DNA from: an uncultured Gemmatimonadales bacterium
GTDB taxonomy: Bacteria; Gemmatimonadota; Gemmatimonadetes; Gemmatimonadales; GWC2-71-9
Assembly (NCBI GenBank): GCA_963798915.1
Contig: CAWCVB010000002.1
Coordinates: forward strand, 672,001 to 736,000
Length of the DNA stretch: 64,000 nucleotides
Direction of reading: 5' to 3'
Shown here: positions 3,162-56,358 of the stretch, piece after piece
How positions within the stretch are numbered: the stretch's first letter is position 1
Layout: every line of letters starts with the position of its first letter
The notes under the pieces: model-generated
Seen by the model: only the letters and a program-made list of their open reading frames with translations
Told to the model about the DNA's origin: nothing
The model's database searches: none
Program-made: the position numbers and the translations under genes

Positions 3162-4100
3162 ATGAGAACAGGCAGTCTTGCGGCAGCGATCGTTACGCTT
3201 GCGGCAGCGCCGCTCACCGCCCAGCAGGGCACCTCCGCCGCGCTGGTCCTGCGGCTGGCGGCCATCCCGGCCCCCCTTGGCTACGAGAAGCGCCTGGCCG
3301 ACACGCTCGCCGCTCTCCTGCCGCGCGCGACGCTCGACCGCGCCGGCAACGTCATTGTGACGCTCGGGAGCGGGCAACCCCGGCGCATGATCGCGTGCCC
3401 AATGGATGAGCCGGGCTGGGTGGTTGGCGGCATTCGGGAGGATGGCTACCTGACCGTTCGGCGCCTGCCTGGTCGCACACCCGCACTGTTCGACCAGCAG
3501 GCCGAAGGACAGCGCATCACCCTGCTCGGCACCCATGGCGACTTGCCTGGCGTGGTGGGCGTCCGCTCCGTACATCTGACGCGCGGCCGGGCCAGCAGCG
3601 ACAGTCCGTTCACCGCGGATGACGCTTTTGTGGATGTGGGCGCCAGTTCAGCGGACGAGGCCCGGGCACTTGGAGTCCGAGTCACCACCCCCTTCGTCCT
3701 CAGCAAGGCCCCGCTCCGCTATGGCGCCAACCTCGCCGCGGCACCGTCCATCGGCACCAGGGCGGCCTGCGCCGCCCTGGTCCGGGCGGCTTCGGCCCGG
3801 TCCCGGGGCACGGTCGTGCTCGCGTTCGTGGTGGAGCAGGGCCTCTCTGCACGCGGGCTGCTCGCCGCCGCAACCATGCACGGGCCCTTCGCCGAGACCC
3901 TGATCCTCGGTGCCGCGCCCGGCGACAGCGCCGTCCATGCTGATTCGCTGCCCCGCCTCCGTCAGGGAGCGGGGCTCGGCCACGTCAGGGTGTGGCGCCT
4001 TCGCGATCGATTCGATGGCTGGGCGGTGGAAACCGTGGCGCTGGACGACGTGGACCTGCTCCAAGCGCGCTTGCGCGCGTGGATCGGGGGCGCGCCATGA
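3162..4100 (+). CDS. M42 (TET) peptidase homologue, metal ligands lost, with signal peptide
   Basis: M42 fold motifs (DRAGNVIV, CPMDEPGWVV, FVDVGA) present, but His, Asp-Asp, Glu-Glu and the C-terminal His are replaced. Confidence 0.8.
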   Translation: MRTGSLAAAIVTLAAAPLTAQQGTSAALVLRLAAIPAPLGYEKRLADTLAALLPRATLDRAGNVIVTLGSGQPRRMIACPMDEPGWVVGGIREDGYLTVRRLPGRTPALFDQQAEGQRITLLGTHGDLPGVVGVRSVHLTRGRASSDSPFTADDAFVDVGASSADEARALGVRVTTPFVLSKAPLRYGANLAAAPSIGTRAACAALVRAASARSRGTVVLAFVVEQGLSARGLLAAATMHGPFAETLILGAAPGDSAVHADSLPRLRQGAGLGHVRVWRLRDRFDGWAVETVALDDVDLLQARLRAWIGGAP

Positions 4101-5182
4101 CTCGCTTTGGACTGACAGCCATGATGCTCGCAAGCGTCGTGTCATCGCTCGCCGGGCAGGGTGCTCCCGTGAATGAGGCCGAGTCGGTGCTCCGGACGCT
4201 GGTGGAGAGCTACGGGCCGTCCGGCGCCGAAGCGCCGGTGCGAGACGCCGTGAAGCGATTGCTGCCGTCCGGCCTGCATACCGAAACGGACAGTGCAGGC
4301 AATCTGTGGGTGCGCTTTGGCCGGGGGCCGTCCCCCACGGTGTTCGTGGCACATCTCGACGAGATCGGCTGGCGCGTCACGGACATCAATGCCGACGGCA
4401 CGCTCTCGCTGGAGCGCCTTGGCGGATTCTTCCCCTCGCTCTATGAAGGGAAACCGGCGCTGATCCACACGCCGGCGGGCCCGGTCAGCGCCGTCTTCAT
4501 GCCACGTGATTCGGTTGGCCGGCGACCAGACCGGACCCCGGAGGCGATCCGGGTGGATCCAGGCACCGGTTCTGCCGCAGCCAGCCGCCAGAAGGGCATC
4601 GCCGTCGGCAGTACCGTGACCATGCCCAAGTCGTATCAGCGGCTCGCCGGCACCCGGGCAACCGGACGTTCCTTCGATGACCGGGTCGGCTGCACCGCGC
4701 TGATCCTGGCCGCGCGGCGCCTCGCCGACCGCCCGCCGGCACATCCGGTGGTGTTCATCTGGAGTGTGCGCGAAGAGGTGGGCCTCGAAGGTGCCGCCGT
4801 CGCGGCCGATGCCCTGGGTGTCGGTGTCTCCCGGGTGCACGCAGTGGATACCTTTGTCTCCGCCGACGCGCCGCTGGAACTTCCGGCCTACGGGCTCGCG
4901 CCCCTGGGGGCGGGCGCGGTGATCCGGGCCGTAGACAACAGCAACGTGGCGCCCGCCGCGCTGGTGGACTCGGTACTTGCCCTGGCAGCGCGTGAGGAGA
5001 TTCCCCTCCAGTTCGGCGCCACCAGTGGCGGCAACGACGGATCGGTCTTCGCGCCATGGGGAGTGCCGGACATTCCGCTGGCGTGGCCACTGCGCTACTC
5101 GCATTCGCCAGTCGAGGTGGTGGACCTCAAGGATGTGGTGGCACTGGGCCGGCTGGTGGAGGCGCTGGCGCGCCAGGAGTAA
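4097..5182 (+). CDS. M42 family metallo-aminopeptidase with signal peptide
   Basis: AHLDEIG, SFDDRVG, VREEVG, AVDT and RYSHSPVE all intact; ATGA overlap with the upstream paralogue. Confidence 0.9.
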   Translation: MTRFGLTAMMLASVVSSLAGQGAPVNEAESVLRTLVESYGPSGAEAPVRDAVKRLLPSGLHTETDSAGNLWVRFGRGPSPTVFVAHLDEIGWRVTDINADGTLSLERLGGFFPSLYEGKPALIHTPAGPVSAVFMPRDSVGRRPDRTPEAIRVDPGTGSAAASRQKGIAVGSTVTMPKSYQRLAGTRATGRSFDDRVGCTALILAARRLADRPPAHPVVFIWSVREEVGLEGAAVAADALGVGVSRVHAVDTFVSADAPLELPAYGLAPLGAGAVIRAVDNSNVAPAALVDSVLALAAREEIPLQFGATSGGNDGSVFAPWGVPDIPLAWPLRYSHSPVEVVDLKDVVALGRLVEALARQE

Positions 5183-5201
5183 GCGGCCCGCGAGCCGCGA
5201 C

Positions 5202-5238
5202 TTGCGACATCCCGATCCCGTCTGCATATTTATGCATT
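5202..5238 (+). promoter_or_regulatory. sigma70-like promoter (TTGCGA-17-CATATT) overlapped by an ARG box (TGCATATTTATGCA)
   Basis: AT-rich palindrome at 5223-5236 directly before argG, in an operon that ends in argR. Confidence 0.8.
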
Positions 5239-6465
5239 ATGCAGAAACGCCCGATTGTCGCCCTCGCCTTCTCCGGCGGCCTGGATACCTCCTACTGCGT
5301 CCCTGTTCTCGCCGAGGCGGGCTACGACGTCCACACCGTCTTCGTCAACACGGGCGGCGCCTCCGCCGCCGACCGGGAGGCCATTGACCGCCAGGCCCGC
5401 GCGGTCGGCGCGGTCCAGCACCATGAAGTCGATGCCCGCGAAGCGGTGTTCGATCGCTTTGTCCGTTTTCTGATCCAGGGCAACGTGCTCCGCGGTGAGG
5501 TCTACCCGCTGTCCGTTGCCGCCGAGCGCACCCAGCAGGCCATGTCCGTCATCGGCATCGCGCGCGCCGTCGGCGCACGGGCGGTGGCGCATGGTTCCAC
5601 CGGCGCCGGCAACGACCAGATCCGCTTTGACATCGCCCTTCGGGTGCTGGCTCCGGAACTCGCCATCATCACGCCCATTCGCGAGCAGGCGGTCAGGCGT
5701 GAGGAATCCATCGCCTATCTCGAGGTGCGGGGCCTTCCGGTGCCGGCCCGGGCATCAGCGTACTCCATCAATCGCGGGCTCTGGGGCACCACCTGGGGCG
5801 GCGGCTGGACCCACGACACCTGGGCTGGCCCGCCGCCCGAATTGATCGAGCCACCTGCCGACGCGCCAGCACCGACCGAACTGGAGTTGGGCTGGGACCG
5901 GGGACTACCGGTGACGCTCGATGGAGCCAACCTGGCGGGGGCCGAACTGGTCGACCGTCTGGGTGCCATCGCCGAGTCGTACGGCATCGGCCGCTCGATT
6001 CACGTCGGCGAAACCGCGCTTGGCATCAAGGGTCGGATCGGATTCGAGGCGGGTGCCGCGCTGCTGCTGATCGGGGCGCACCGCGAGCTGGAGAAGCTGG
6101 TGCTCACTCGCTGGCAGGCGTTCTGGAAGGATCAGCTGGGCCGTTTCTATGGTGACCGGCTGCACGAGGGGCAGTACTTCGATCCGGCGCTGCGCGACAT
6201 CGAGGCGATGGTCACCAGCTCACAGCAGCGCGTCAGCGGCGAGACCCGAGTGCGCCTTTGGCCCGGCCGGTTTCAGGTGGTCGGTACCCGCAGTCCGTAC
6301 TCCATGATGGACCCGGGCGTCGCGACGTACGGCGAGGAGAACCGGCTCTGGACCGGTGAGGAAGCCCGCGACTTTGCGCGGGTATCGGCCATTCCGTCCT
6401 TGCTGGCCGTGCGTGCGGCCGAGCACAGCAAGGCGGCTGGGGCGGAGGCGACATCATGGTCGTGA
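5239..6465 (+). CDS. argG: Argininosuccinate synthase
   Basis: LAFSGGLDTS, AHGSTGAGNDQIRF, GIKGRIGFE. Confidence 0.95.
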   Translation: MQKRPIVALAFSGGLDTSYCVPVLAEAGYDVHTVFVNTGGASAADREAIDRQARAVGAVQHHEVDAREAVFDRFVRFLIQGNVLRGEVYPLSVAAERTQQAMSVIGIARAVGARAVAHGSTGAGNDQIRFDIALRVLAPELAIITPIREQAVRREESIAYLEVRGLPVPARASAYSINRGLWGTTWGGGWTHDTWAGPPPELIEPPADAPAPTELELGWDRGLPVTLDGANLAGAELVDRLGAIAESYGIGRSIHVGETALGIKGRIGFEAGAALLLIGAHRELEKLVLTRWQAFWKDQLGRFYGDRLHEGQYFDPALRDIEAMVTSSQQRVSGETRVRLWPGRFQVVGTRSPYSMMDPGVATYGEENRLWTGEEARDFARVSAIPSLLAVRAAEHSKAAGAEATSWS

Positions 6466-7547
6466 CCACGCGCGTCCGGCTGGATCGAATCGCGTCCAGC
6501 ACCCGCAATGCCCAGCTGGCTTCCGAAGTGATTATCGGGAACGAAATCGTGGCGCAGGAAGGCTACGTGCTGGCGGTGCGCATCCTGGCCGACAAGGCCA
6601 GCTACAACACGCTCGAAGACCTGAGCGGGCGCATGGTCTCGCTGCGCGGGGGAGACGTCATCGCGGGTGTGCTGGGTGCGCGCCGGGCACTGCGCGGGTA
6701 CGCCGGCGAGGTGCCCCGGCACGTCGCTGCGGGCGACACCATCCAGGTGCTCAATCTCGGCGGCATCCTGGGGCGCTGCACCTCGGAAAATCCCGACATA
6801 GGTCCGCCCTTCGATGCCGAGGTGCTGGGCGCCGTGCTGACCTTTCCGGCGTTGGGTGACCGGGTGGGCCGGCCGGCCCACATCCGCGACCGCGCGGTTC
6901 CGCCGGCCGATCGCCTGGAGAGCAGGGTGCCGGTCGTCTACGTCGCGGGCACCTGCATGAACGCCGGGAAGACGGTCGCTGCAACCGAGCTCGTGCGCGG
7001 GCTCGCGCGGGGCGGGCTCAAGGTGGCAGCCGCCAAGCTGACCGGAGTCTCGCTGATGCGCGACGCGCTGTCGATGCAGGATGCCGGCGCGTTGTCGGCG
7101 CTCACGTTCAACGATGTGGGAATTGCAACCACGCATCCGGGCGTGACGGTGGCCACAGCCAAGGGCGTCTTCAACCGGCTGGCAGCGAGCAAGCCTGATG
7201 TCATCGTTGCCGAGCTGGGCGACGGCATCCTGGGCGAATACGGCGTACAGGATATTCTGGCGGACCCGGAGCTGGCCGCGATCGGCGCCGCCTGGGTCAT
7301 GGCCGCTCCCGACCCGGTCGCCTGCTGGGGTGCTGTGGAACTGATGCGCCGCCAGTTCGGCCTGCCGGTCACGGTGATTACCGGACCGGCCACCGACAAT
7401 GACGTGGGCCGGAGCTACATCCGCGGCTCCCTCGGGTTGCCGGCGCACAACGCCCGTCGTGATGCCGCGGGGCTCCTGGCGGCGGTGCGCGAGAGCCTCG
7501 ACGCGTGGGTTGCGCCGGAGCCGACCACGGCCGGGGCCGAGTCGTGA
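6456..7547 (+). CDS. DUF1611/DgcN-like P-loop protein within the arg operon; candidate N-acetylglutamate synthase
   Basis: AGTCMNAGKT P-loop, AAKLTG...DAGA, ELGDGILG; overlaps both argG and argC. The function is inferred. Confidence 0.75.
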   Translation: MVVTTRVRLDRIASSTRNAQLASEVIIGNEIVAQEGYVLAVRILADKASYNTLEDLSGRMVSLRGGDVIAGVLGARRALRGYAGEVPRHVAAGDTIQVLNLGGILGRCTSENPDIGPPFDAEVLGAVLTFPALGDRVGRPAHIRDRAVPPADRLESRVPVVYVAGTCMNAGKTVAATELVRGLARGGLKVAAAKLTGVSLMRDALSMQDAGALSALTFNDVGIATTHPGVTVATAKGVFNRLAASKPDVIVAELGDGILGEYGVQDILADPELAAIGAAWVMAAPDPVACWGAVELMRRQFGLPVTVITGPATDNDVGRSYIRGSLGLPAHNARRDAAGLLAAVRESLDAWVAPEPTTAGAES

Positions 7548-8593
7548 CCCAGGCCCTGCGCGTGGCGGTTGTCGGAGCCGCGGGTTATGCAGGAGGCGAG
7601 TTGCTTCGCCTGCTGTTGCAGCATCCCCACGTGGGGGAAGTGCTGGCGACGAGCCGCAGCCAGGCGGGCAAGCCCATTGCCGACGTCCATCCTGGTCTCG
7701 CACCACTCACCGAGGCTCGCTTCTCGGGCTTCTCGCCGGGAGAAGCGGCCGATGGCAGGGACGTGGTCTTCCTCGCCCTGGAGCATGGTGAGTCATCCCG
7801 GCTTGCGAGTGAGGTCTTTGCCGCCGGTCCTGGCCTGGTCATCGACCTCGCCGCGGATTTCCGGATCCAGGAGCCGCGTCTCTACGAGCAGTTCTACGGT
7901 CCGCATGCCGCGCCCGACTATGTGCACCGCTTTGCCTACGGTCTGGCCGACGTCGCCGGCACCGGGCTTCGCGGCGCCGCCGCGATCGCGGCACCGGGTT
8001 GTTTTGCGACTGCCGCACAGCTGGCGCTCTGGCCCATCGCACGGGCCGGACTGGCGTGCGAACCCGCCATGTTCGCCATCACCGGATCCAGCGGCGCCGG
8101 CGTGCATCCGCGTCCGACCACGCATCATCCCGCCCGGGCCAACAACGTGTTTGCCTACGCCGTGTTGTCGCACAGGCACGAGGCCGAAGTGCTGGCAAGC
8201 TGGCGCACCTGGACCGGCCGGAGCGACGCCCACGCACGGCTGATGGTCCACGCGGGACCATTCGTCCGCGGGATCTACCTGACGCTGCATGCCCGACTGT
8301 CCGCTGCCGACGCGTCGCGGCTCGAGGCCGCACTGCCACTCTATCGCGAGGCGTACGCCGGCCGGCCCTTTGTGCGAGTGCTTGACCGGGTTCCCGACCT
8401 CACCCAGGCGGTGGGTACCAATTTCGCCTTTATCCACGCCGCCAGGTCCGCGGATGGCCGGGAGCTTCAGGTCGTGGTCGCCGAAGACAACCTGGTGAAG
8501 GGGGCGGGCGGCCAGGCCATCCAGGCCATGAACCTGGCCCTGGGTCTCGATGAGACTGCCGGACTCGAGTCGGTCGGATTCCATCCATGCTGA
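7544..8593 (+). CDS. argC: N-acetyl-gamma-glutamyl-phosphate reductase
   Basis: VVGAAGYAGGEL, IDLAADFR, APGCFAT, DNLVKGAGGQAIQAMN; GTG start at 7544. Confidence 0.95.
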   Translation: MTQALRVAVVGAAGYAGGELLRLLLQHPHVGEVLATSRSQAGKPIADVHPGLAPLTEARFSGFSPGEAADGRDVVFLALEHGESSRLASEVFAAGPGLVIDLAADFRIQEPRLYEQFYGPHAAPDYVHRFAYGLADVAGTGLRGAAAIAAPGCFATAAQLALWPIARAGLACEPAMFAITGSSGAGVHPRPTTHHPARANNVFAYAVLSHRHEAEVLASWRTWTGRSDAHARLMVHAGPFVRGIYLTLHARLSAADASRLEAALPLYREAYAGRPFVRVLDRVPDLTQAVGTNFAFIHAARSADGRELQVVVAEDNLVKGAGGQAIQAMNLALGLDETAGLESVGFHPC

Positions 8594-9738
8594 GCACGGC
8601 CGGCGTGGGTGCGTTGCTACCGGTCTATGCCCAGATGCCGGTGAAGCCAGTCACGGGTCGTGGGTCATGGGTCATGGATGAAGATGGCAACCGCTGGCTC
8701 GATGCCTACGGAGGCCACGCGGTGGCGGCCACCGGCCACAGCCATCCGGCAGTGGTGAAGGCGATCAGCGAGCAGGCCGAAGCACTCCTGTTCTACTCCT
8801 CGGTGCTGCCCCATCCGAACCGGGAGCGGCTGGCGGCCGAGCTGGTGCGGCGCATGCCGGCGGGCTTGTCGCATGTGTTCTTCGCCAACTCCGGAGCGGA
8901 AGCCAACGAATCCGCCATGCTGCTGGCGCGGAAAGTGACCGGTCGCTCGCGCATGCTCTCGGTCGCTGGCGGGTGGCACGGTCGTACCATCGCGTGTCTC
9001 TCCGTCACCGACGGCGAGAAGTACGAGGCCGGTGCTCGCGCCGCCGGCATGCCGCTGTCGGTCAAGGTCGGGTTCAACGATGTCAGCGCGCTCGATGAGC
9101 TGATTGACGACTCGGTCGCCGCGGTCATCGTGGAACCAGTGCAGGGAATGAAGGGCGCCCGTGACTGCGCTCCCGAATTTCTGGACGCTGCGCGTCAGTT
9201 GACTGCCGCGCGTGGTTCCCTGCTCATTTTCGACGAGATTCAGTGTGGCGTGGGCCGGACCGGCGCATTCACCGCCGCCGAGTCATTCGGGGTCGTGCCC
9301 GATCTCCTGACCATGGCCAAGGGACTCGGTTCCGGGCTGCCGATCAGTGCGGTCGTGGCGACTGCAGCAATTGCCGGTCAGGTCAAGGTGGGGGACCTGG
9401 GCAGCACCTTCGGTGGCGGGCCGGTGCCCTGCGCCGCCGCCCTCGCCACGCTTCAGGTTATCGATGACGAGGACCTGCTGCTCAACGTGCGCAGGATGGC
9501 ACAGCGGCTTCGCGCTGGCGCATTGCGGGCGGGAGTGCAGGCGGTGCAGGGCCGGGGCCTGCTGCTTGGACTTCGGCTCGATCGGCCGGCGACTGACGTG
9601 CAGCGCGCGCTGTTCCAGCGACGGATTCTGACCGGCACGTCCACCGATCCCGCCGTGCTTCGGCTGATGCCCCCATTGTCATTTTCCGCCGACGAGGCGG
9701 ACCTGCTGATCGCGACGCTGGTCGAGGTCCTCGCATGA
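8587..9738 (+). CDS. argD: Acetylornithine aminotransferase
   Basis: Class III PLP motifs NSGAEANE, FDEIQCGVGRTG, MAKGLG, GSTFGG; operon context. Confidence 0.9.
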   Translation: MLSTAGVGALLPVYAQMPVKPVTGRGSWVMDEDGNRWLDAYGGHAVAATGHSHPAVVKAISEQAEALLFYSSVLPHPNRERLAAELVRRMPAGLSHVFFANSGAEANESAMLLARKVTGRSRMLSVAGGWHGRTIACLSVTDGEKYEAGARAAGMPLSVKVGFNDVSALDELIDDSVAAVIVEPVQGMKGARDCAPEFLDAARQLTAARGSLLIFDEIQCGVGRTGAFTAAESFGVVPDLLTMAKGLGSGLPISAVVATAAIAGQVKVGDLGSTFGGGPVPCAAALATLQVIDDEDLLLNVRRMAQRLRAGALRAGVQAVQGRGLLLGLRLDRPATDVQRALFQRRILTGTSTDPAVLRLMPPLSFSADEADLLIATLVEVLA

Positions 9739-10748
9739 GCGGCCGCGACTTCCTGGCGATGGAGGACTGGGGCAGCGAGGGCGTGGAATCCCTTCTCTCG
9801 CTGGCGGCGCGCATCAAGCGCGGGGAGGTGACGGGTGGACTCGAGCGCAAGATCCTGGCCGCCATCTTCATGGACCCGAGCCTGCGCACCCGGTCCAGCT
9901 TCGAGGCCGGCATGTTCCTTCACGGCGGGCACGCGATCATCCTGGAGCCGGGGAAGGGAAGCTGGGCCCTGGAAACGGAACATGGCGTCGTGATGGACGG
10001 TGCCTCGGTCGAGCATGTGATCGAGGCGGCACGGGTGCTCAGCCGTTATGCCGATGCGCTCGCGGTCCGGGCATTTCCGAAGGGCGGGACCTGGCAAGCG
10101 GCGCGCGAGGACCGGGTCATCCGGGACTTCGCACGCCATGCGTCGAAGCCGGTCATCAACATGGAGAGCACGCGCCGCCATCCCTGCCAGGGGCTGGCCG
10201 ACGCCATGACCTTGCGCGAACACCTGGGCACCACCCGGCGGAAGCGGTTCGTCCTCGCCTGGGCGTGGCACCCCAGGGCGCTTCCGACGGCCGTGCCCGC
10301 CAGCGCCGCCATTGCGGCCGCGATGCTGGGAATGGATGTGGTGATTGCCCGGCCCCCGGGCTATCAGCTCGACCCCGATGACATGGCCACCATCGCGCGC
10401 TGCGCCGATGAGGCGGGCGGCAGTGTGACGGAATCGGAGGAGCTCGACGCGGCCCTGGAGGGTGCCGACGCCGTGTACGTCAAGTCATGGGGCGCGCTCT
10501 CCGCATTTGGCCGACCGGAGGCCGAGGCCGTGCTGCGCGAACCGCACCGTGGCTGGCGCATGACCGCCGGCCGCCAGCACCTGAGCCGTGGCGGTGCGGG
10601 TATCGTCATGCACTGCCTGCCGGTGCGTCGGAACGTCGAGATCGATGATGCCGTGCTCGACGGCCCGCACTCGGTGGTCGTGGATGAAGCGGAGAACCGC
10701 CTGCATGTACAGCGGGCGTTGTTGCTCGAGATACTCGCTGAACGCTGA
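9735..10748 (+). CDS. argF: N-acetylornithine carbamoyltransferase (ArgF'/AOTCase type)
   Basis: PSLRTRSSFE, HPCQ, WAWHPRALPTAVP loop and HCLPVRRNVE, as in Xanthomonas-type AOTCase. Confidence 0.9.
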   Translation: MSGRDFLAMEDWGSEGVESLLSLAARIKRGEVTGGLERKILAAIFMDPSLRTRSSFEAGMFLHGGHAIILEPGKGSWALETEHGVVMDGASVEHVIEAARVLSRYADALAVRAFPKGGTWQAAREDRVIRDFARHASKPVINMESTRRHPCQGLADAMTLREHLGTTRRKRFVLAWAWHPRALPTAVPASAAIAAAMLGMDVVIARPPGYQLDPDDMATIARCADEAGGSVTESEELDAALEGADAVYVKSWGALSAFGRPEAEAVLREPHRGWRMTAGRQHLSRGGAGIVMHCLPVRRNVEIDDAVLDGPHSVVVDEAENRLHVQRALLLEILAER

Positions 10749-10760
10749 GGCACTATTGTC

Positions 10761-10820
10761 GCACAGCGCACAGCGCACAGGAAGCGCACAGCGCACAGCG
10801 CACAGCGCACAGCGCATAGC
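10761..10820 (+). repeat. Heptamer tandem repeat (GCACAGC) x ~8
   Basis: Directly visible between argF' and argB, with one interruption. Confidence 0.95.
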
Positions 10821-10823
10821 CTC

Positions 10824-11786
10824 TTGTCACCCAAGGAGCTCACCCTGTCACTGGATCCAACTCAGGGCATTGCCGGCCTCAAGGGCGCGCTGCGCTACGT
10901 ACGCGCCTATCGCGACCAGGTGTTCGTGGTCAAGCTGGGCGGCGACGTGCTGCGGGATGCCGACCTGCTCGACCAGGTCGCCACTCAGCTGGCCTTGCTC
11001 CACTCGCTGAGCATCCGTCTCGTCGTCGTCCATGGCGGCGGGCCCCAGGCGTCGGCGCTGATGCGCCGCCTGGGCCAGGAGCCCGTCATGGTCGGCGGCC
11101 GCCGGGTCACCGACGATGCGGCGCTGGAAGTCGTCAAGATGGTGTACGCCGGGTTGCTGAACACCGATCTCGTTTCCGCGCTGCGCGGGCATCGGGTGCA
11201 GCCGGTCGGCTTGAGCGGAGTGGATGCCGACCTGCTCACCGCCCATCGGCGGCCCCCGGTGGATGTGGTGGACGATGAGGGACGCAGCCGCCTGGTGGAC
11301 TTCGGCCATGTTGGCGACCTGGACCGGGTGGATGTCCGTGTCCTGGTCACGCTCATGGATGCGCGGTTCGTGCCGGTGGTGGCGAGCCTCGCGGGAGACG
11401 ACGACGGCAATGTGTTCAACGTCAACGCCGACACCGTGGCCGAAGCACTCGCCACGGCGCTGCGGGCCCAGAAACTGATCTTCCTGACCGGCGTGCCTGG
11501 TGTGCTTCGGGATCGCAACGATCCTTCCACGCTCGTGACATTCGCCGATCCGGACGACCTGATCGGCCTGATGCAGAGTGGCGCTCTGGCCGGAGGCATG
11601 CGGCCCAAGGTGGAGGCCTGTATCCGCGCCGCCACTGGCGGCGTCGAGCGGACCCACATCGTGGATGGCCGTCAGCCCGACGCGTTGCTGACCGAGGTCT
11701 TCACTGGTGCTGGTTGCGGGACCATGATCGTCGGCAGGAAGGAGAAGGCGACCTACCTTGGCGTTGACCTGGCCGCCCGAGATTGA
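10824..11786 (+). CDS. argB: Acetylglutamate kinase (no fused GNAT domain)
   Basis: FVVKLGG, VVHGGGPQ, GRRVTD, NVNADT, GGMRPKV; start is TTG 10824 or possibly CTG 10845. Confidence 0.92.
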   Translation: MSPKELTLSLDPTQGIAGLKGALRYVRAYRDQVFVVKLGGDVLRDADLLDQVATQLALLHSLSIRLVVVHGGGPQASALMRRLGQEPVMVGGRRVTDDAALEVVKMVYAGLLNTDLVSALRGHRVQPVGLSGVDADLLTAHRRPPVDVVDDEGRSRLVDFGHVGDLDRVDVRVLVTLMDARFVPVVASLAGDDDGNVFNVNADTVAEALATALRAQKLIFLTGVPGVLRDRNDPSTLVTFADPDDLIGLMQSGALAGGMRPKVEACIRAATGGVERTHIVDGRQPDALLTEVFTGAGCGTMIVGRKEKATYLGVDLAARD

Positions 11787-12834
11787 GCTGCTCCGCAGCC
11801 TGGTCGCGACTCCTTCGGTCAGCGGGACCGAGGCGGCGGCAGGCGAGGTCGTGGCGGTGCAGGCCCGCGAGTGGGGACTCGACGCGGTGCGCGATGCGCA
11901 TGGGGTGCGCGTGGAAGTTCGCGGCGGGCTCCCGGGGCCGACCCTGGCCCTGGTGTCGCACCTCGACACCGTGCCTCCGGGCGAGGGGTGGACTCGCGAT
12001 CCCTACCGGGCCACCATCGAGGCCGGGCGGCTGTACGGTCGTGGCGCGGGCGATGCGAAAGGGCCGGTTTCAGCGATGCTCGCTGCCGCCTGGGACGTGG
12101 CGCGCGAGCAGCGCCTGGCCCGCGGGCGCTTGCTGGTCCTGCTGGGCTATGGCGAGGAGACACGGCACACGACCATGCCCGCCGCGGTAGCCGGCGCAGG
12201 CCCCATTGACGCGGCCATCATCGGCGAGCCAACCAATCTGGACTTTGCGGTGGCCCAGCGCGGCCTCATGATGGTGGACCTTGTGGCTGCGGGCGATCAG
12301 CGGCATGCGGGGTACGCCGCGGCTGATGGCGAGTTCACCAACGCGGCGCTGGTGCTGGCGGCCGACCTGCTCCGGCTGGGCCAGCTCTTCCATGAACGGG
12401 CGCACCCGATGCTCGGTTTTCCTACCATCACTCCAACCATGCTCGAAGCCGGGGTAAGCCGGAACGTGACTCCGCCATCCGCTCGAGCCGTGCTCGACAT
12501 CAGGAGTACGCCGACATGGCCTCACGCTGAAATCGCCGAGCGTCTTCGGCGCGAGCTTCGGTCGGAGGTGGCCGTCACCTCGGACCGGCTGGTTCCCTGC
12601 GAGACGCCGGAGAGTTCGCGACTGCTTGGCGTGATGCGACAGGCCCGCGCGGCCTCCCGCTCGTACGGCAGCCCGACCTGCTCGGACTGGGTATTCCTGC
12701 GCGATCACGACACCGTGAAGTGCGGGCCCGGCACCAGCCGTCGCTCGCATACGCCCGACGAATTCATTGACCTGCATGAGGTGAGTGCCGCGCGAGACCT
12801 CTACGCACGGGTCGCGGAGAGTTACCTCCAGTGA
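11764..12834 (+). CDS. argE: M20 deacetylase ArgE (acetylornithine/acetylcitrulline deacetylase)
   Basis: SHLDTVP, GRGAGDAKG, GEET, GEPT, SHTPDE; operon context. Confidence 0.85.
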   Translation: MTWPPEIELLRSLVATPSVSGTEAAAGEVVAVQAREWGLDAVRDAHGVRVEVRGGLPGPTLALVSHLDTVPPGEGWTRDPYRATIEAGRLYGRGAGDAKGPVSAMLAAAWDVAREQRLARGRLLVLLGYGEETRHTTMPAAVAGAGPIDAAIIGEPTNLDFAVAQRGLMMVDLVAAGDQRHAGYAAADGEFTNAALVLAADLLRLGQLFHERAHPMLGFPTITPTMLEAGVSRNVTPPSARAVLDIRSTPTWPHAEIAERLRRELRSEVAVTSDRLVPCETPESSRLLGVMRQARAASRSYGSPTCSDWVFLRDHDTVKCGPGTSRRSHTPDEFIDLHEVSAARDLYARVAESYLQ

Positions 12835-14198
12835 GACGCCCGGAAATGCTCTGGTCTCCCGGGGCCGAACCCAATGTGCAGATGCTGGCGTACACAGTGG
12901 GCGATGATCCGGTGTGGGATGCGGCGCTGCTCCGCTGGGACGTGCTGGGCAGTCTGGGGCACGTGGCTGGGCTCAAGGCATCGTCGCTGCTGAGCGAACG
13001 GGAGTATCGCAGTCTTCGCGCCGGACTCCGCGCGGCGCTCAAGGCGGTGGATGCCGGCCGCCTGACCATTGGCCGGAACCATGAGGACGCCCACTCTGCC
13101 GTCGAGGCGTGGCTGACTGGCCGCAGCAGGGTGGCGGGCGAGCGGTTGCATACCGGACGTTCGCGCAACGACCAGATCGCCGTGGACCTGCGGCTGTTCC
13201 TGAAGCACACCCTGCTCGAGATTCATGCCTCGGCGAGCTCCTTGGCCATGGCGCTGGTGCGGTTCGGCGTTGGCCATCGCGCCGTCCTGTGGCCGGGCTA
13301 CACCCATCAGCGCCGGGCAATGCCGTCCTCGGCGGCGCTCTGGGCCGGCGCACTCGCCGAAGGTCTGCTCGACACCCTGGAAGACCTGCCGACCCTCTGG
13401 CGGCGGGTGGACCGCTCGCCGCTGGGCAGCGCCGCTGGTTACGGCGTGCCGCTTCCGCTCAAGCGCGAGGCGGCAGCGCGGGCCCTCGGCTTCGCCGGGC
13501 TGGACCGGAACGTGGCCAGTGTGCAGAACAGCCGGGGCAAGCTCGAGGCCTCGGTGCTGGCCTGGTGTGGCCAGCTGGGTCACGACCTGTCCAAGCTGGC
13601 GAGCGACGTCATGCTCTTCACAGCGGAGGAATTTGGCTACCTCATCCTGCCGCCGGCCCTGGCCACCGGTTCCAGCATCATGCCCCATAAGCGGAACCCG
13701 GATCTCTTCGAATTGACCCGCGGGCGGGCGGCCGCGTTGGACGGCGATCTGGTCACCATGCTGCTGCTCAAGGGCAAGCTCGGCACGGGCTATCACCGCG
13801 ACTTTCAGTTGCTCAAGGAGCCGCTCTTCCGGGGATTGCACCGCACCCAGGAGATGCTGGCCATGATGACCACCGCCGTGCCGATGCTGAAGGTGGACCC
13901 GGAGCGCTGTCGCGCTGCGCTGGCTGGCGGTGCACTCGCCACGGACGAAGTGATGCGGCGGGTCGAAGCGGGCGTTCCCTTCCGCCGGGCCTACCGCGAG
14001 GTGGCCGCTGCCATCCGTCGGGGCGAAGCATTCGAGGCGCCGAGCCCGCGGCAGATCGTCGCGCGCCGGCGCTCAACCGGCGGCCTCGGCAATGTGGGGC
14101 TGGCCGAGGCGGCGGCCCGGATCCGCGCGGCGGAACGCTGGCAGCGTGCCGAGCGAAGGCGATTCATGACGGCGATGCGCCGTCTGGCTGGGAGCTGA
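12831..14198 (+). CDS. argH: Argininosuccinate lyase
   Basis: HTGRSRNDQ, PGYTHQRRA, GSSIMPHKRNPD; 455 aa, so no ArgA fusion. Confidence 0.95.
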   Translation: MRRPEMLWSPGAEPNVQMLAYTVGDDPVWDAALLRWDVLGSLGHVAGLKASSLLSEREYRSLRAGLRAALKAVDAGRLTIGRNHEDAHSAVEAWLTGRSRVAGERLHTGRSRNDQIAVDLRLFLKHTLLEIHASASSLAMALVRFGVGHRAVLWPGYTHQRRAMPSSAALWAGALAEGLLDTLEDLPTLWRRVDRSPLGSAAGYGVPLPLKREAAARALGFAGLDRNVASVQNSRGKLEASVLAWCGQLGHDLSKLASDVMLFTAEEFGYLILPPALATGSSIMPHKRNPDLFELTRGRAAALDGDLVTMLLLKGKLGTGYHRDFQLLKEPLFRGLHRTQEMLAMMTTAVPMLKVDPERCRAALAGGALATDEVMRRVEAGVPFRRAYREVAAAIRRGEAFEAPSPRQIVARRRSTGGLGNVGLAEAAARIRAAERWQRAERRRFMTAMRRLAGS

Positions 14199-14202
14199 GA
14201 CG

Positions 14203-14661
14203 GTGAGCAGCGATCGCCGCAAACGCCAGCTCAAGATCCTCGAGATGATCGAGACCCGGGCATTGCGTACCCAGGAGGAGGTGGCGGACGCACTCGCATC
14301 GGAAGGCTGGGACGTGACCCAGTCCAGCGTGAGCCGGGATATCGCAGCGCTTGGATTGGTCAAGGTGGGCGGGGCATACCGGCGTCCCGCTGCGATCGCT
14401 GTCAATGCGGACGATCCCGACGAGCGGCGTCTGGCCGAGGGTGTGCTGACGGCCGAACCGGCGGGTGACGGACTGGTGGTGCTGCACACGCCTCCGGGCG
14501 AGGCGAGTCGCGTGGGGGCGGCACTCGACCGGCTGGCCTGGAATGAGATCGTGGGAACCATTGCCGGTGACGATACCATTTTTCTCGCCACCAACGGCCG
14601 GGCCGCGCAGCGGCGACTGCTGCGGCTGGTGGGGCGATTTGTGAGCACCGGGCGAGCTTGA
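14203..14661 (+). CDS. argR: Arginine repressor
   Basis: TQEEV, VTQSSVSRDI, GTIAGDDTIF. Confidence 0.95.
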   Translation: MSSDRRKRQLKILEMIETRALRTQEEVADALASEGWDVTQSSVSRDIAALGLVKVGGAYRRPAAIAVNADDPDERRLAEGVLTAEPAGDGLVVLHTPPGEASRVGAALDRLAWNEIVGTIAGDDTIFLATNGRAAQRRLLRLVGRFVSTGRA

Positions 14662-14725
14662 CGGCTCGGTGGCTCGGCGGAAAGATGGCGCGTTGCGAGC
14701 TCGGTACCTCCAGCCGTCCAGCCGT
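14661..14725. repeat. Degenerate inverted octamer repeats between convergent genes (possible bidirectional terminator)
   Basis: GACGGCTC/GGTGGCTC on the left, CCAGCCGT x2 on the right. Confidence 0.45.
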
Positions 14726-16416
14726 TACTCCTTCCGCCACCCTGGTCCCCGCAGGAACCGCCCCGGCGTCGCGCCGGTATGCTCACCGTCCTTGAGCACC
14801 TGCATGCCGTTCACGAACACGTCCCGGACGCCGGTCGAGTACTGGTGTGGCTTCTCGAAGGTCGCATGGTCAATGATGGTTGCCGGATCGAAGATGACCA
14901 CGTCCGCGAAGTACCCGGGAGCGAGCCGGCCCCGTCGGACAAGCTTGAGATTGGCAGCCGGGAGCGACGTAAGCTTCCGAATCGCCTCGGTCAGCGGCAA
15001 AGCGTGCTGCTCCCGCACGTAGCGGCCGAGCAGCCGGGCCACGTTGCCATAGGCGCGCGGATGGGTACCGGTTCGAAGGAAGACTCCCTCGGTGGCATAG
15101 CTTCCCGCGTCCGACCCGAAGCTCACCCACGGGATCGCCACCTTCTTCCTGACATTCTCTTCTGACATGGTGAAGAAGACACAGCCGACGCGGCTGTCGT
15201 CCTGGATGACCAGGTCCATGGCAGTGGCCTCTGGTGAGGTGCCGCGCAGCCGTGCTACTTCGCCCAGGGTCTTGCCAATCAGGTAGCGCAACGAATCCTG
15301 GCGGAAGCTCACGAGGAGGATGCCGTCCGGGCCGCCCGCGTTGGCAAACGAATTGTCGTAACCGTCCGCGCCACCTCGCATTTCCCGCACGAGGCGCGCA
15401 CGAATGGCGGGATCGCGAAGCCGGGCGACCCACGCATCGTGACCGCCCTCCTGCACCCAGGTTGGCATGGTGGCGTCGAGACCCGTGGAGCTGGCAGGGT
15501 ACGTATACATGTCGGCCGTGATGGCGAGGCCGGCCCGGCGCGCTGAGTCCACCTTGGCGACAATGGAATCGAGTTTGCCCCAGTTGGCCCGGCCCGAAGC
15601 CTTGAGGTGATAGATTTCGGCGGGCACGCCTGCTGCGTCGGCGATGTGAATCAGTTCGTCCAGGGCGTCGAGCACGTGCGAGCCCTCGTCGCGCATGTGC
15701 GAGATGTACATCCCGTGATACTCACCGGCCGCCCGCGCCAATCCGACCAGCTCCTCGGTCGTGGCGTAGTTGTCCGGGGCGTAGATCAGCGAGGAACCGA
15801 CGCCAAGCGCCCCCTCGCGCATCGCCTGGCGCACCAGCTCCTTCATGCGGTCCAGCTCTGCCGGCGTGGCGGGCCGGTTGGCGTAGCCGACCTCGTGGAT
15901 CCTGACGGTGCCCGCACCGACGAACGAGGCCACGTTGGTCGAGATGCCGCGCCGCTCGAGATATTCCAGGTACTCGCCGAGGGTGGTCCAGGGTATTGCA
16001 TACTTGATGTCCTGCTGGCGGGCGATGGCCTCGGCGCGCATCGAATCGGTCAGCGGGCCCATCGAGCTGCCTTCGCCCATGACCTCGAGCGTTACGCCCT
16101 GGCGGATCCCGCCCTGCGAGCGCCCGTCCTGGATCAGGGAAACATTTGCCCAGCTCAGCATGTTGATGAAGCCGGGCGCCACGGCCATGCCCCTGGCATC
16201 GACTTCGGTGGCCGCGCTGCCGGGTGGCACCGGCCCCACAGCGGCAATGCTGTCGCCGATCAGGGCCACGTCGGTCATGACGGGTGGCGATCCGCTGCCG
16301 TCGTACACGGTGCCGCCCCGGATAACGACGTCGTAGCGATGCGCCGCCGCGCTGGTGCCACAACCTGCGATTCCCAGAAGCAGCCCCCCGGACGCCGCCA
16401 GGGCGACGGTGCGCAC
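14725..16416 (-). CDS. N-acyl-D-amino-acid deacylase (D-aminoacylase family amidohydrolase), probable lipoprotein
   Basis: VIRGGTVYDGSG, APGFINM, SHMRDEG, HPRAYG, GYFADVVIFDP; GTG 16416 after GGAG; IAGC lipobox. Confidence 0.9.
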   Translation of the reverse strand: MRTVALAASGGLLLGIAGCGTSAAAHRYDVVIRGGTVYDGSGSPPVMTDVALIGDSIAAVGPVPPGSAATEVDARGMAVAPGFINMLSWANVSLIQDGRSQGGIRQGVTLEVMGEGSSMGPLTDSMRAEAIARQQDIKYAIPWTTLGEYLEYLERRGISTNVASFVGAGTVRIHEVGYANRPATPAELDRMKELVRQAMREGALGVGSSLIYAPDNYATTEELVGLARAAGEYHGMYISHMRDEGSHVLDALDELIHIADAAGVPAEIYHLKASGRANWGKLDSIVAKVDSARRAGLAITADMYTYPASSTGLDATMPTWVQEGGHDAWVARLRDPAIRARLVREMRGGADGYDNSFANAGGPDGILLVSFRQDSLRYLIGKTLGEVARLRGTSPEATAMDLVIQDDSRVGCVFFTMSEENVRKKVAIPWVSFGSDAGSYATEGVFLRTGTHPRAYGNVARLLGRYVREQHALPLTEAIRKLTSLPAANLKLVRRGRLAPGYFADVVIFDPATIIDHATFEKPHQYSTGVRDVFVNGMQVLKDGEHTGATPGRFLRGPGWRKE

Positions 16417-27201: not shown

Positions 27202-27296
27202 AAAGTATGCCGTTGCGGCGGTCCATGCATGCAGCCTGCAGTCACTGTATTTCCGCCCGAACGGCCATCTGACGACTGATTTCCGGTCAGGCCGCC

Positions 27297-27311
27297 TGGC
27301 ATGACTGCAGC
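27297..27311 (+). promoter_or_regulatory. sigma54-like -24/-12 promoter (TGGCATG-N4-CAGC)
   Basis: GG and GC at canonical spacing, ~30 bp before the ASRT ATG. Confidence 0.4.
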
Positions 27312-27342
27312 CGCGGCCGCCGGACGTGAAGGGATATTCCGC

Positions 27343-27726
27343 ATGGCAACCCCACCCGGTCGCACTCGGTGGGCCATCGCCGAGGGCTACATCCCCGGCT
27401 GGAGCACCGGTCCGGAGCCGCAGTTCACCAGCCACGAGACCGCCTGCATCCTCAACGCCGGGCCGACGCCGGCCCACGTCACGATCACGGTGTACTTCAG
27501 CGATCGCGACCCTGCAGGCCCCTATCGCCTGACCGTGCCGGCGGCGCGCACCCGGCACATTCGCTTCAACGATCTTACCGATCCCGAGCCGATTCCGCGG
27601 GACACCGACTACGCCAGCGTCCTCGAGTCGGACGTCCCGGTGGTGGTCCAGCACACCCGCCTTGATTCGCGACAGGCCGAGAACGCACTGCTCTCGACGG
27701 TTGCCTATGCCGACAGCCCGTCCTGA
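27343..27726 (+). CDS. ASRT (Anabaena sensory rhodopsin transducer) family protein
   Basis: GRTRWAIAEGYIP, SHETACILN, RTRHIRFNDL, PVVVQHTRLDSRQAENALLST. Confidence 0.9.
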   Translation: MATPPGRTRWAIAEGYIPGWSTGPEPQFTSHETACILNAGPTPAHVTITVYFSDRDPAGPYRLTVPAARTRHIRFNDLTDPEPIPRDTDYASVLESDVPVVVQHTRLDSRQAENALLSTVAYADSPS

Positions 27727-29631: not shown

Positions 29632-30738
29632 GTCCCGCTCCCTCGGCAGGTGACCCGCTCGTCCAGCGCGTCACCGTGAGCTGCTTCACCGTGCCAACGG
29701 ACGCACCGGAATCCGATGGTACCCTGACGTGGGAGTCCACCACGATCGTTGTCGTCGAAGTGACCGGGGGTGACACCGCCGGGCTCGGCTACACCTACGC
29801 GCACCCCGCGGCAGGACTCCTGATCCAGTCGACGCTGGCAGAGGTCGTGACGGGCCGGAGCGCGCTGGCGGTCCCCGCCGCCTGGCAAGCCATGGTGCAC
29901 GAGGTGCGCAACCTCGGTCGACCGGGGCTCTGCTCCATGGCCATCGCGGCGGTGGACAGCGCCCTCTGGGATCTCAAGGCCCGGTTGCTCGGCCTCCCGC
30001 TGGTCACGCTGCTGGGACAGATGCGCCAGGCCGTTCCCCTCTATGGCAGCGGGGGATTTACCTCCTACGATGAACAACGACTCCGCGACCAGCTCGGCAG
30101 CTGGGCGTCTGACGGATTCTCGATGGTCAAGATGAAGGTCGGGCGCGACCCGGCGGCCGATCCGGCGCGGGTGCGATCTGCGCGTGAAGCCATCGGGCCG
30201 TCGACAGCGCTGTTCGTTGACGCCAACGGTGCCTACCGGCGAAAGCAGGCTCTCGAGCTGGCGATGCACTTTGCCGAGAGCTGGGGTGAGCTGGTTCGAG
30301 GAGCCGGTGTCCTCCGATGACCTGGCCGGCCTCCACCTGCTGCGCGATGCCGGACCTTCCGGCATGGCCATCGCGGCAGGCGAATACGGGTGGGGATTGC
30401 CGTATTTCCGGCAGATGCTCGACGCCGGTGCCGTCGACATCCTGCAGGCCGATGCGACGCGCTGCGCGGGCATCACCGGGTTCATGCGGGTGGGTGCGCT
30501 CTGTGAGGCCTGCGGCATCCCGCTCTCGGCCCATACCGCACCGGCGCTGCATCTGCACCCGTGCTGCGCCCTGCCATCCATCATTCACCAGGAATTCTTT
30601 CATGATCACGTGCGCCTGGAGCGGATGCTGTTCGACGGCATCACCGAGCCTCGCGCCGGAACTCTCGCCCCCGACCTGTCCCGCCCCGGCATGGGGCTCG
30701 AGCTGCGACGCGCCGACGCCCGGCGCTTCGCGGCGTGA
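29628..30738 (+). CDS. Mandelate racemase/muconate lactonizing (enolase superfamily) enzyme; one frameshift near 30280
   Basis: ALWDLKAR, KMKVG, VDANG in ORF 29628..30320, continuing as WFEEP, AGEYG, SAHT in ORF 30184..30738. Confidence 0.88.
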
Positions 30739-45201: not shown

Positions 45202-45217
45202 GATGAGCGGTACCCCG

Positions 45218-48178: not shown

Positions 48179-48266
48179 AGGAAGTCGCTCCGTCAGGTGA
48201 CGGGCGCAGAATGCGGCCGGAACCGGATCCGAGTATCACCCTTGCGACGCAGGAGGTAGCCGGACG

Positions 48267-56100: not shown

Positions 56101-56358
56101 CGAATAGCCCCGCACCACCCGCGCACCGGGCACCTTGAGCATCTCGGACGTGATGGGATAGGTGACCTGGTCCTCGACAATGCCCGGGGCCTGTTCAGCA
56201 AAGTCGGTCTGGATGATGACCTGGACGTCCGACAGGTCTGGAATGGCGTCGAGCGGGGTGCTGCGCATGGCCCATACACCGCCAGCGACCAGCGCGACGG
56301 TTGCCAGCAGGACCAGGAAGCGGTTCCGCAGCGACCAGGCAATGATGGCGTTAATCAT
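53183..56358 (-). CDS. cusA: CusA/CzcA heavy-metal RND efflux pump; frameshifts near 54560 and 53860
   Basis: DAIPDLSDVQVI, MSLGGIAIAIGAMVDA, EFMPPL, TDPAPLDM, WTMPIKGRIDM, RLRPVVMT, spread over three ORFs. Confidence 0.92.

Follow-up and report, generated by a model that had tools for sequence, protein, structure and literature searches.

The enzymes described for the first step of arginine biosynthesis in the accessible text of a review of N-acetylglutamate synthase (NAGS; PMC4490483) are only the GNAT-related forms (classical ArgA, bifunctional NAGS/K, and S-, O-, H- and C-NAGS) and ArgJ. In Bacteroidota a succinyl variant of the pathway is known, for which a GNAT protein of the Bacteroides BT3761 type has been proposed as the N-succinylglutamate synthase (PMC7311316). 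A further candidate comes from a preprint, 'Novel enzymes for amino acid biosynthesis in diverse bacteria and archaea: GapMind 2026' (bioRxiv 10.1101/2024.10.14.618325, version 2026-07-02), whose accessible text predicts that ACG33_RS14135, a hypothetical protein of Steroidobacter denitrificans, is an N-succinylglutamate synthase; homologs of this protein are stated there to occur 'virtually always' in arg operons and never alongside homologs of ArgA from P. aeruginosa. Here we describe a gene, referred to as X, that lies within an arginine operon in a stretch of 64,000 nucleotides (the window) from an uncultured Gemmatimonadales bacterium (contig CAWCVB010000002.1, positions 672,001 to 736,000). 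Our analysis suggests that protein X (P0001, 363 amino acids) is probably the first enzyme of arginine biosynthesis in this organism, acylating the α-amino group of L-glutamate, with N-succinyl-L-glutamate as the most likely product; we therefore list it as a candidate N-succinyl-L-glutamate synthase or synthetase.

X (6456..7547, plus strand) is a single open reading frame (ORF) extending from the ATG at 6456 to the TGA at 7547, and its translation contains the motifs AGTCMNAGKT (residues 164–173) and AAKLTG (residues 192–197), just as an earlier note on this DNA had reported. It is embedded in the plus-strand operon argG-X-argC-argD-argF'-argB-argE-argH-argR, the other members of which could be assigned with Pfam and NCBIfam models. 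In particular, argG (5239..6465; argininosuccinate synthase) matched Arginosuc_synth and Arginosuc_syn_C as well as TIGR00032 (280.7 bits against a cut-off of 268.2); its ORF is open from 5056, and we place the start at the ATG at 5239, which gives the N terminus MQKRPIVALAFSGGLDTS. For argC (7544..8593; TIGR01850, 328.5 bits against 233.6) we place the start at the GTG at 7544; the ORF has another GTG at 7505 (7505–8593), and the TIGR01850 alignment begins at residue 19 of this longer version. The product of argD (8587..9738) is a class III N-acylornithine aminotransferase (Aminotran_3, E 7.7e-94) whose top NCBIfam models are acetylornithine transaminases, every one of them scoring under its cut-off, and argF' (9735..10748) encodes an N-acylornithine carbamoyltransferase (NF003384, 419.4 bits against 288). 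These genes are followed by argB (10824..11786; N-acylglutamate kinase; TIGR00761, 219 bits against 151.3); by a gene for an M20 deacylase of the ArgE/DapE family (11758..12834; Peptidase_M20 and M20_dimer, with all NCBIfam equivalogs under their cut-offs), likely an N-acylcitrulline deacylase; by argH (12831..14198; argininosuccinate lyase; TIGR00838, 281.4 bits against 279.5); and by the arginine repressor gene argR (14203..14661; Arg_repressor and Arg_repressor_C).

Every step of the arginine pathway is encoded in this operon except the first, and X is the sole operon gene to which no function had been assigned. The earlier note had stated that the operon carries B, C, D, F', E, G, H and R genes without ArgA or ArgJ, and that ArgB and ArgH are too short to carry a fused GNAT domain; both statements were borne out. 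The 320-residue ArgB matched only AA_kinase (residues 33–281) and the 455-residue ArgH only Lyase_1, such that no acyltransferase domain in ArgB and no fused domain in ArgH were found in the Pfam scan. Likewise, a Pfam scan of 72 ORFs from the window detected no GNAT or ArgJ domain, and X itself had no match to the Acetyltransf (GNAT) family at E <= 10. (The 72 ORFs consisted of 15 picked from the 87 listed between 1 and 16 kb, together with 57 located beyond 14 kb or at 61–834; those 57 were selected from a set of 67 ORFs with a minimum length of 90 amino acids and a third-position G+C (GC3) of at least 0.72, from which 10 short nested ORFs and one already-scanned ORF were dropped and to which 61–834 was added. 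The G+C content of the window is ~67–69%.) Because X is the only unassigned gene in an operon that lacks only the first step, the assignment of X as the missing N-acylglutamate synthase is well supported by context.

X overlaps the end of argG by 10 nt (6456–6465), and its overlap with argC amounts to 4 nt for an argC start at the GTG at 7544 or to 43 nt for one at the GTG at 7505; these overlaps, which agree with those reported earlier, include in the former case a GTGA that X and argC have in common, and X is therefore translationally coupled to both argG and argC. An ArgR operator-like palindrome (ARG box), TGCATATTTATGCA, was confirmed at 5223..5236, 3 nt upstream of the argG ATG; it has no mismatches, and no other match occurs in the window. 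Since a match with at most two mismatches arises by chance in 24 of 100 shuffles, the weight of this site lies in its position and conservation; of 70 related loci, 51 have an ARG box with at most one mismatch within −150..+40 of the start of the argG match. A scan of 4900–15200 for σ70 promoters and terminators returned no promoter-like sites and nothing informative.

The earlier note had suggested asking whether homologs of X sit in arg operons of genomes without argA or argJ. Relatives of X were sought in one genome per species with a query alignment of seven sequences, and at least 511 were confirmed; the counts of gene context given here refer to the best 80 of these, which the query biased towards close relatives, and neighboring arg genes were located by tblastn with the Arg proteins of the window. 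Among the 78 loci with at least 300 nt of downstream sequence, argC directly follows X in all 78, and argG directly precedes X in 74 of 78. In the remaining four (L071, L072, L074 and L075), the operon begins with X and ends with argG and argH. Other arg genes found in the 80 loci, many of which lie on truncated contigs, were argB (65), argF' (63), the M20 gene (63), argH (61) and argR (56). According to the titles of their records, 62 of the loci are Gemmatimonad and 18 belong to Myxococcales/Myxococcota/'Deltaproteobacteria', Acidobacteriota/Thermoanaerobaculia, Planctomycetia or Elusimicrobia; the order of the X-containing arg genes is thus conserved across at least five phylum-level labels. 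No GNAT or ArgJ match was found in 96 flanking ORFs of 13 diverse loci. X is conserved to the same degree as ArgB in these loci: mean identity to the window proteins was 74.6% for X, a figure inflated by the choice of loci according to their similarity to X, and 75.2% for ArgB.

Several further features of these loci concern the arg operon more broadly. In the four exceptional loci, which come from metagenome-assembled genomes (MAGs) of Myxococcota/'Deltaproteobacteria', the gene order is X-argC-(argD)-argB-M20-argR-argG-argH, no ArgF' was found within 21 kb, and argG and argH are only 32–35% identical to those of the window. Two other MAGs, labelled Myxococcales, have carA and carB divergently adjoining the X-containing operon (L054, 4151–8601; L057, 4177–8564; minus strand). 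In the window, two tandem genes for M42-family aminopeptidases (3162–4100 and 3992–5182) immediately precede the arg operon, with 41 nt between their end and the ARG box; about 25 of the 80 loci, all of them Gemmatimonad-labelled, have one or both upstream of argG, and this may reflect a link to arginine or peptide metabolism or mere local synteny.

The nature of the acyl group can be judged from the carbamoyltransferase encoded beside X. N-acetylornithine transcarbamylases (AOTCases) have Glu92, Asn185 and Lys302, whereas N-succinylornithine transcarbamylases (SOTCases) have A/S/P/V/Q, P and V/I/E at these positions, according to the accessible text of a review by Shi et al. (PMC4581275). In the numbering of the Xanthomonas campestris enzyme the ArgF' of the window has V92, P185 and E302, the proline being at position 184 of the protein itself. 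Its best match in the PDB is 3l06, which in the printed alignment differs from wild-type 3kzc solely by V in place of Glu, opposite residue 92 of the query, and which we read as an E92V mutant. A SOTCase-type triad is found in all 63 ArgF' proteins encoded near X homologs (VPE in 55, VPV in 3, APV in 2, and IPE, VPI and PPE in 1 each); position 92 is V in 59, A in 2, I in 1, P in 1 and Glu in none. Because the succinyl-type triad is present in the window and in 63 of 63 neighbors, the arginine pathway encoded here most likely corresponds to the succinyl variant known from Bacteroidota (PMC7311316), and the product of X would be N-succinyl-L-glutamate. The view taken in the earlier note, that F' is of the acetyl type and that the product of X is acetylated, does not agree with V92/P185/E302 in place of the E/N/K of AOTCase.

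X is a genuine gene and not a chance ORF, given its large homologous family and an AlphaFold2 model (built from 61 representatives) with a mean predicted local distance difference test (pLDDT) score of 96.7 and a predicted template-modeling (pTM) score of 0.93. Homologs at E <= 0.001 comprise 3796 clusters at 90% identity, among 8000 scored candidates, and 1453 representatives at 50% identity, 173 of which have E values <= 1e-30. The nearest named relatives, with identities of up to 90%, are entries called 'hypothetical protein' from Gemmatimonadales MAGs; those farther away, from Chloroflexia, Blastocatellia, Planctomycetales and Elusimicrobia, all bear the same name, and Steroidobacter is not represented among the named homologs listed. 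With X as the query, neither Pfam nor NCBIfam gave a family at E <= 0.001. A search with the single sequence against PDB chains gave nothing below E 0.69, and the family profile found only P-loop matches in the PDB, to FtsY, BioD and MobB, at E values of about 1e-04.

On the basis of these models, X is predicted to consist of two domains: an all-β N-terminal domain that is specific to the family, and a P-loop domain that resembles dethiobiotin synthetase (BioD). The N-terminal domain (residues 1 to about 150; 6456..6905) contains 10 strands and one short helix according to DSSP, residues 1–130 being all-β in two models, and carries the conserved residues S14, E54, R76 and P87 in the alignment of 61 representatives. 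It had no Foldseek match in the PDB at E <= 0.001 (best E 0.33, TMq 0.29), and the named Atlas clusters were all below 0.9. The C-terminal α/β P-loop domain (residues about 155–352; 6918..7511) was identified as BioD-like with both Foldseek and hhalign. In the Foldseek search with the model of X, BioD structures occupy ranks 1–3, 5 and 6 (E 1.4e-06 to 1.1e-05, TMt 0.50–0.54), led by 3of5 (E 1.4e-06) and including 1dae, 1dts and 4wop; MeaB/MMAA, signal recognition particle (SRP)/FtsY, HypB and ParA-type proteins follow at about 1e-05 to 1e-04. The only match listed that spans approximately the whole length of X (354 columns) is to 8oru, with a TMq of only 0.23.

Alignment of the X family profile with E. 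coli BioD by hhalign (probability 71.8%, E 3.5e-05, 101 columns) pairs T166, K172 and T173 of X with T11, K15 and T16 of BioD, K194 with K37, and E253 with E115. In BioD these residues hold Mg-ATP and stabilize the acyl or carbamoyl phosphate. The Walker A loop of X, GTCMNAGKT (residues 165–173; 6948..6974), aligns with GTDTEVGKT of BioD; K194, in VAAAKLTG (7035..7037), is the counterpart of Lys37, and the profile also places this motif on the lysine motif of M. tuberculosis BioD; E253, in VAELGDG (7212..7214), is the counterpart of Glu115. Among the 61 representatives, which are 28–59% identical, G171, K172, K194, E253 and P87 are invariant, and at least 90% of the sequences retain T173, R76, D203, D220, D248 and D286. 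Both K194 and E253 are also invariant in paralogs encoded on plasmids (described below). A GPxTDN motif (residues 310–315) is conserved in the arg-linked members of the family and not in the plasmid paralogs, and is for this reason a candidate substrate-specificity element.

The P-loop had been described in the earlier note as of the DUF1611 type, and X as a DUF1611/DgcN-like protein. This placement was not upheld. The Pfam model of DUF1611 (PF07755) matched X at 18.1 bits against a cut-off of 25 (E 0.0019), and the match is confined to residues 155–195, which correspond to profile positions 9–49 of 201, that is, to the P-loop and 40 of the 201 positions. Nor is the match specific: at E <= 0.01, the 61 representatives include 15 with a match to DUF1611, 25 to CbiA, 25 to MobB and 6 to AAA_26 (BioD-like), and the weak NCBIfam matches among them are to MobB (42), BioD (19) and CobB (18), with no DgcN-named model among the best 25 of 76 matched families. 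DUF1611_N, presumably PF17396, was not matched by X or by any of the 61 members in Pfam. That domain is described by Pfam as Rossmann-like, and the N terminus of X is predicted to be all-β. Furthermore, BioD leads the Foldseek matches of X, and the DgcN structure 7XRJ is absent from the best 50 of at least 500. By every test that we ran, X thus appears to fall outside DUF1611/DgcN and to be part of a distinct family among the BioD-like P-loop proteins; X and DUF1611 may share a distant ancestor. Of the earlier proposal that X is a non-GNAT replacement for ArgA, the gap-filling role stands, given the gene order, the ARG box and the similar prediction made independently in the preprint, and the acetyl group and membership in DUF1611 do not. 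We also considered whether X might be BioD proper and rejected this, the score of X with TIGR00347 being 15.9 bits against a cut-off of 83.3 and the gene being found in an arg operon, and in no bio operon, in 78 of 78 loci.

Taken together, these observations suggest a scheme in which X would replace a GNAT-type ArgA or an ArgJ by acylating L-glutamate at its α-amino group, and ArgB, ArgC and ArgD would carry the resulting N-succinyl-L-glutamate forward; the succinyl-type ArgF' would then carbamoylate, after which the M20 enzyme would deprotect the product to yield citrulline. The P-loop domain of X would hold the nucleotide part of the acyl donor, and the β domain, together with the arg-specific GPxTDN loop, would hold glutamate. 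As to the identity of the donor, we lean slightly towards succinyl-CoA over free succinate and ATP, because to our knowledge every characterized N-acylglutamate synthase uses acyl-CoA or acetylornithine and because DgcN has been reported to be an acetyltransferase.

A different donor would make X an ATP-dependent succinate:L-glutamate ligase (N-succinylglutamate synthetase), with the same product and the same role. Such an enzyme would phosphorylate the carboxylate of succinate, the phosphate then being displaced by the amine of glutamate, much as in dethiobiotin synthetase and in amidases of the CobB/CobQ type. Succinate set free by the M20 deacylase would be re-used, and acyl-CoA would not be needed. 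We regard this as a serious alternative, albeit one we hold to be on the unlikely side. When the whole model is compared with known structures, dethiobiotin synthetases and not acyltransferases match best, the counterparts of BioD T11/K15/T16, K37 and E115 are aligned in X, and K172, K194 and E253 (invariant in the 61) and T173 (at least 90%) are all kept in paralogs of 23–26% identity. No CoA-binding or GNAT domain was detected with Pfam in X or its 61-member set, and 8oru, which matches over nearly the whole length of X, is a structure that we take to be that of a cyclic 2,3-diphosphoglycerate synthetase, an ATP-dependent enzyme. On the other hand, the stretch through K194 is covered by the DUF1611 P-loop model as well, so that DgcN-type enzymes may share these residues, which would then not discriminate, and the diphosphate of CoA can be bound by P-loops. 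Moreover, no N-acylglutamate synthase is known to depend on ATP (NAGS review, PMC4490483).

The two remaining explanations change, respectively, the acyl group and the role of X, and with succinylation of L-glutamate by X as the reading that we favor, they seem to us quite unlikely in the first case and very unlikely in the second. If X were an acetyl-CoA:L-glutamate N-acetyltransferase, that is, a non-GNAT ArgA feeding the acetylornithine transcarbamylase route, then the name that NF003384 gives to ArgF' at 419.4 bits, N-acetylornithine carbamoyltransferase, would be apt, as would the fact that ArgF' is overall most similar to the AOTCase of X. campestris; DgcN, moreover, is a D-glutamate N-acetyltransferase as cited in the available part of the preprint (10.1101/2024.10.14.618325). 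However, this would leave unexplained V, P and E in place of Glu92, Asn185 and Lys302, the best PDB match having V at the wild-type Glu92 position, and the lack of Glu at position 92 in any of the 63 neighboring ArgF' proteins, and the preprint, in its accessible text, reached the succinyl conclusion for its own family. Alternatively, X could be an accessory nucleoside triphosphatase (NTPase), for example one that regulates ArgB or ArgC, or one that serves the M20 deacylase as a SIMIBI-class metallochaperone or assembly factor, with the true first enzyme encoded elsewhere. MeaB/MMAA, HypB, ParA-like and SRP GTPases are indeed among the Foldseek matches, MobB is the commonest weak match (42 of 61 in NCBIfam, 25 of 61 in Pfam), and the search for ArgA and ArgJ covered the window and the related loci. 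Yet the second lysine of BioD, K194 in X, is retained, which is a feature of an enzyme and not of a switch GTPase; argC adjoins X in every one of 78 loci, whereas only 63 of 80 were found to have the M20 gene; and the one convincing fusion partner of X is an amino-acid kinase, not an M20 enzyme. In addition, the preprint states that its family never co-occurs with ArgA homologs and that Steroidobacter has the family and no recognizable ArgE, as far as the accessible text goes (10.1101/2024.10.14.618325).

Several points weigh against succinylation of glutamate by X. Context is known for the 80 closest relatives of at least 511, and the search for argA, argJ or GNAT genes spanned the 64 kb of the window and, for the related loci, flanks of at most 10 kb in either direction. 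The succinyl assignment hangs on three specificity residues of an ArgF' that, overall, is nearer to the X. campestris AOTCase (323 bits) than to the SOTCase of B. fragilis (183 bits), and distant paralogs of X, with identities of 23–26%, are located outside arg operons. The function given to ACG33_RS14135 in the accessible text of the preprint is a prediction only, with no experiment reported, and the membership of X in the same family was deduced from context and the ArgF' signature and not from a sequence alignment. Finally, the preprint describes ACG33_RS14135 as a very distant structural relative of DgcN (Foldseek match to 7XRJ, E 1.4e-07, with an r.m.s.d. of 5.6 Å; 10.1101/2024.10.14.618325, accessible text), a link that was not seen among the best 50 Foldseek matches of X.

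The earlier note had allowed that others might already have predicted an alternative ArgA, and the GapMind 2026 preprint had done so. It is very likely that X and ACG33_RS14135 belong to one family, given their matching context and the ArgF' signature: in the accessible text of the preprint, position 92 is A, P, S or V in 90% of 70 ArgF' proteins that neighbor the ACG33_RS14135 family (10.1101/2024.10.14.618325). Our counts of context and of ArgF' residues reproduce the arguments of the preprint on an independent set of loci. In the literature that we found, insofar as its text was accessible, only this preprint treats a family of the X type, and a search for literature on N-acetylglutamate synthase in Gemmatimonadetes found nothing relevant. 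What is already known is therefore the idea of an alternative ArgA; what is new here is an example from Gemmatimonadota with an M20 deacylase, the three-residue check of ArgF', and the BioD-type catalytic residues, which raise the question of the acyl donor.

Relatives of X are also found in other protein and gene contexts. P0236, a representative of a 50%-identity cluster (626 amino acids, N-terminally truncated), contains an X domain (5–325) and an amino-acid-kinase domain (363–597), and its sequence reads as a genuine protein throughout; the combination echoes the kinase-plus-acyltransferase architecture of classical ArgA. P0240 (687 amino acids; X plus an ArgC-like part) was rejected as a fusion, its long low-complexity wrong-frame stretches marking it as a frameshift artefact. 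Five longer X-containing proteins were found, three with Pfam domains of the semialdehyde-dehydrogenase (ArgC) type and two without a Pfam domain; each has one member, and they may represent read-through of overlapping genes.

The plasmid paralogs, which keep K172, T173, K194 and E253, are 23–26% identical to X in alignment A6 and 24.6–32.5% identical over the tblastn pieces. Two of them, each 23% identical to X in A6, are from Priestia megaterium (L081, 7974–9035; NZ_CP085446.1) and Bacillus paranthracis (L085, 5866–6894; NZ_CP116206.1), in clusters that contain a gene of the phosphoenolpyruvate (PEP) mutase family, a split gene for a thiamine pyrophosphate (TPP)-dependent enzyme, and genes for ATP-grasp ligases, a transporter of the major facilitator superfamily (MFS) and a carbamoyltransferase, and that look like phosphonate natural-product clusters. 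The paralog directly adjoins the carbamoyltransferase gene only in B. paranthracis; in Priestia an ornithine carbamoyltransferase gene lies three genes upstream, and the cluster also encodes an M20 peptidase. Because the paralog is paired with a carbamoyltransferase and a deacylase, one may speculate, by analogy, that the logic of acylation, carbamoylation and deacylation has been re-used there on another amine. On plasmids of Sulfitobacter (L082, 7956–9053) and Paracoccus (L083, 7851–8903), an X-like paralog lies directly upstream of an ATP-binding cassette (ABC) transporter gene. These Rhodobacterales paralogs are annotated as 'DUF1611 domain-containing protein' and 'dethiobiotin synthase', and both annotations, which rest on a sub-threshold P-loop match, are probably misleading. 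We considered whether the plasmid proteins bearing the DUF1611 name might provide a bridge to true DUF1611 and rejected this: they are X-like paralogs, with the same sub-threshold P-loop match and no relative in the PDB.

Elsewhere in the window, frame-split genes occur at 29529–30735, 31403–32968 and 53186–56394; those affected are an enolase-superfamily (MR_MLE) gene in two pieces, a flavin adenine dinucleotide (FAD)-oxidase/4Fe-4S gene with its middle part in another frame, and a gene for an AcrB-type efflux pump in three pieces (profile positions 2–604, 594–839 and 837–1019). Some of the related MAG loci, such as L009 and L032, show similar splits in their arg genes, and assembly frameshifts seem a more likely explanation for the split genes than pseudogenes. 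X of the window is itself intact. On the minus strand at 42964–48235, a gene for an SNF2-type helicase adjoins one for a 1005-amino-acid N6-adenine methylase resembling Eco57I/MmeI, and the pair may constitute a type IIG/ISP-like restriction system or another defence unit. A 148-amino-acid protein encoded at 27280–27723 (plus strand) matches the Anabaena sensory rhodopsin transducer family over almost its full length (PF07100, E 5.5e-56); the ORFs scanned in the window did not include a rhodopsin.

The first step of arginine biosynthesis has had no recognized gene in this lineage, and the same gap is seen in hundreds of species-level genomes from major phyla of soil and sediment, at least 511 relatives of X having been found among species-representative genomes. 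X is annotated automatically as 'hypothetical protein', its relatives are sometimes mislabelled 'DUF1611 domain-containing protein' or 'dethiobiotin synthase', and metabolic models would therefore call such organisms arginine auxotrophs. If X acts as we propose, it would represent an N-acyl-amino-acid synthase built on a P-loop fold that is unrelated to GNAT and carries a previously unseen β domain, and the succinyl variant of the pathway would extend well beyond Bacteroidota. If X should instead prove to be a ligase, it would be a new ATP-dependent amide ligase on the dethiobiotin-synthetase scaffold, acting through succinyl phosphate; the succinate of the pathway would be recycled for one ATP, permitting arginine synthesis without acyl-CoA in Gemmatimonadota, Acidobacteriota, Myxococcota, Elusimicrobiota and others, and the plasmid paralogs beside carbamoyltransferases would apply the logic of protecting, carbamoylating and deprotecting to other amines.

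How, then, does X compare with the systems described to date? The closest counterpart is ACG33_RS14135: both are unnamed proteins encoded within arg clusters with argB, C, D, F', G, H and R, both have a neighboring ArgF' with a residue other than Glu at position 92, and both have been proposed as replacements for ArgA. They differ in that Steroidobacter has no recognizable ArgE (10.1101/2024.10.14.618325), whereas the operon in the window has an M20 candidate. X would occupy the same position in the pathway as the GNAT-type synthases and would make the product proposed for the BT3761 type, the pathway of which also includes a succinyl-type ArgF' and a desuccinylase (PMC7311316); unlike these enzymes, X has no GNAT domain and bears no relation to them in sequence or fold. 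ArgJ supplies N-acylglutamate without a GNAT domain, as X would, but it does so by recycling acetyl from acetylornithine and thereby dispenses with ArgE, whereas the operon in the window encodes a deacylase and an N-acylornithine transcarbamylase and nothing that matches ArgJ. With DgcN, which acylates the amino group of glutamate, X shares a P-loop domain of the same broad class and a weak match to DUF1611; the two differ in that the N terminus of X is predicted to be all-β and that of DUF1611 is Rossmann-like, and in that DgcN serves the catabolism of D-glutamate and not the synthesis of arginine. Lastly, BioD and the CobQ/CobB amidoligases provide the top structural match, and GTxxxxGKT, the lysine after strand 2 and the glutamate after strand 4 all align with X; unlike BioD, with which only ~100 columns align, X has an additional β domain of 150 residues.

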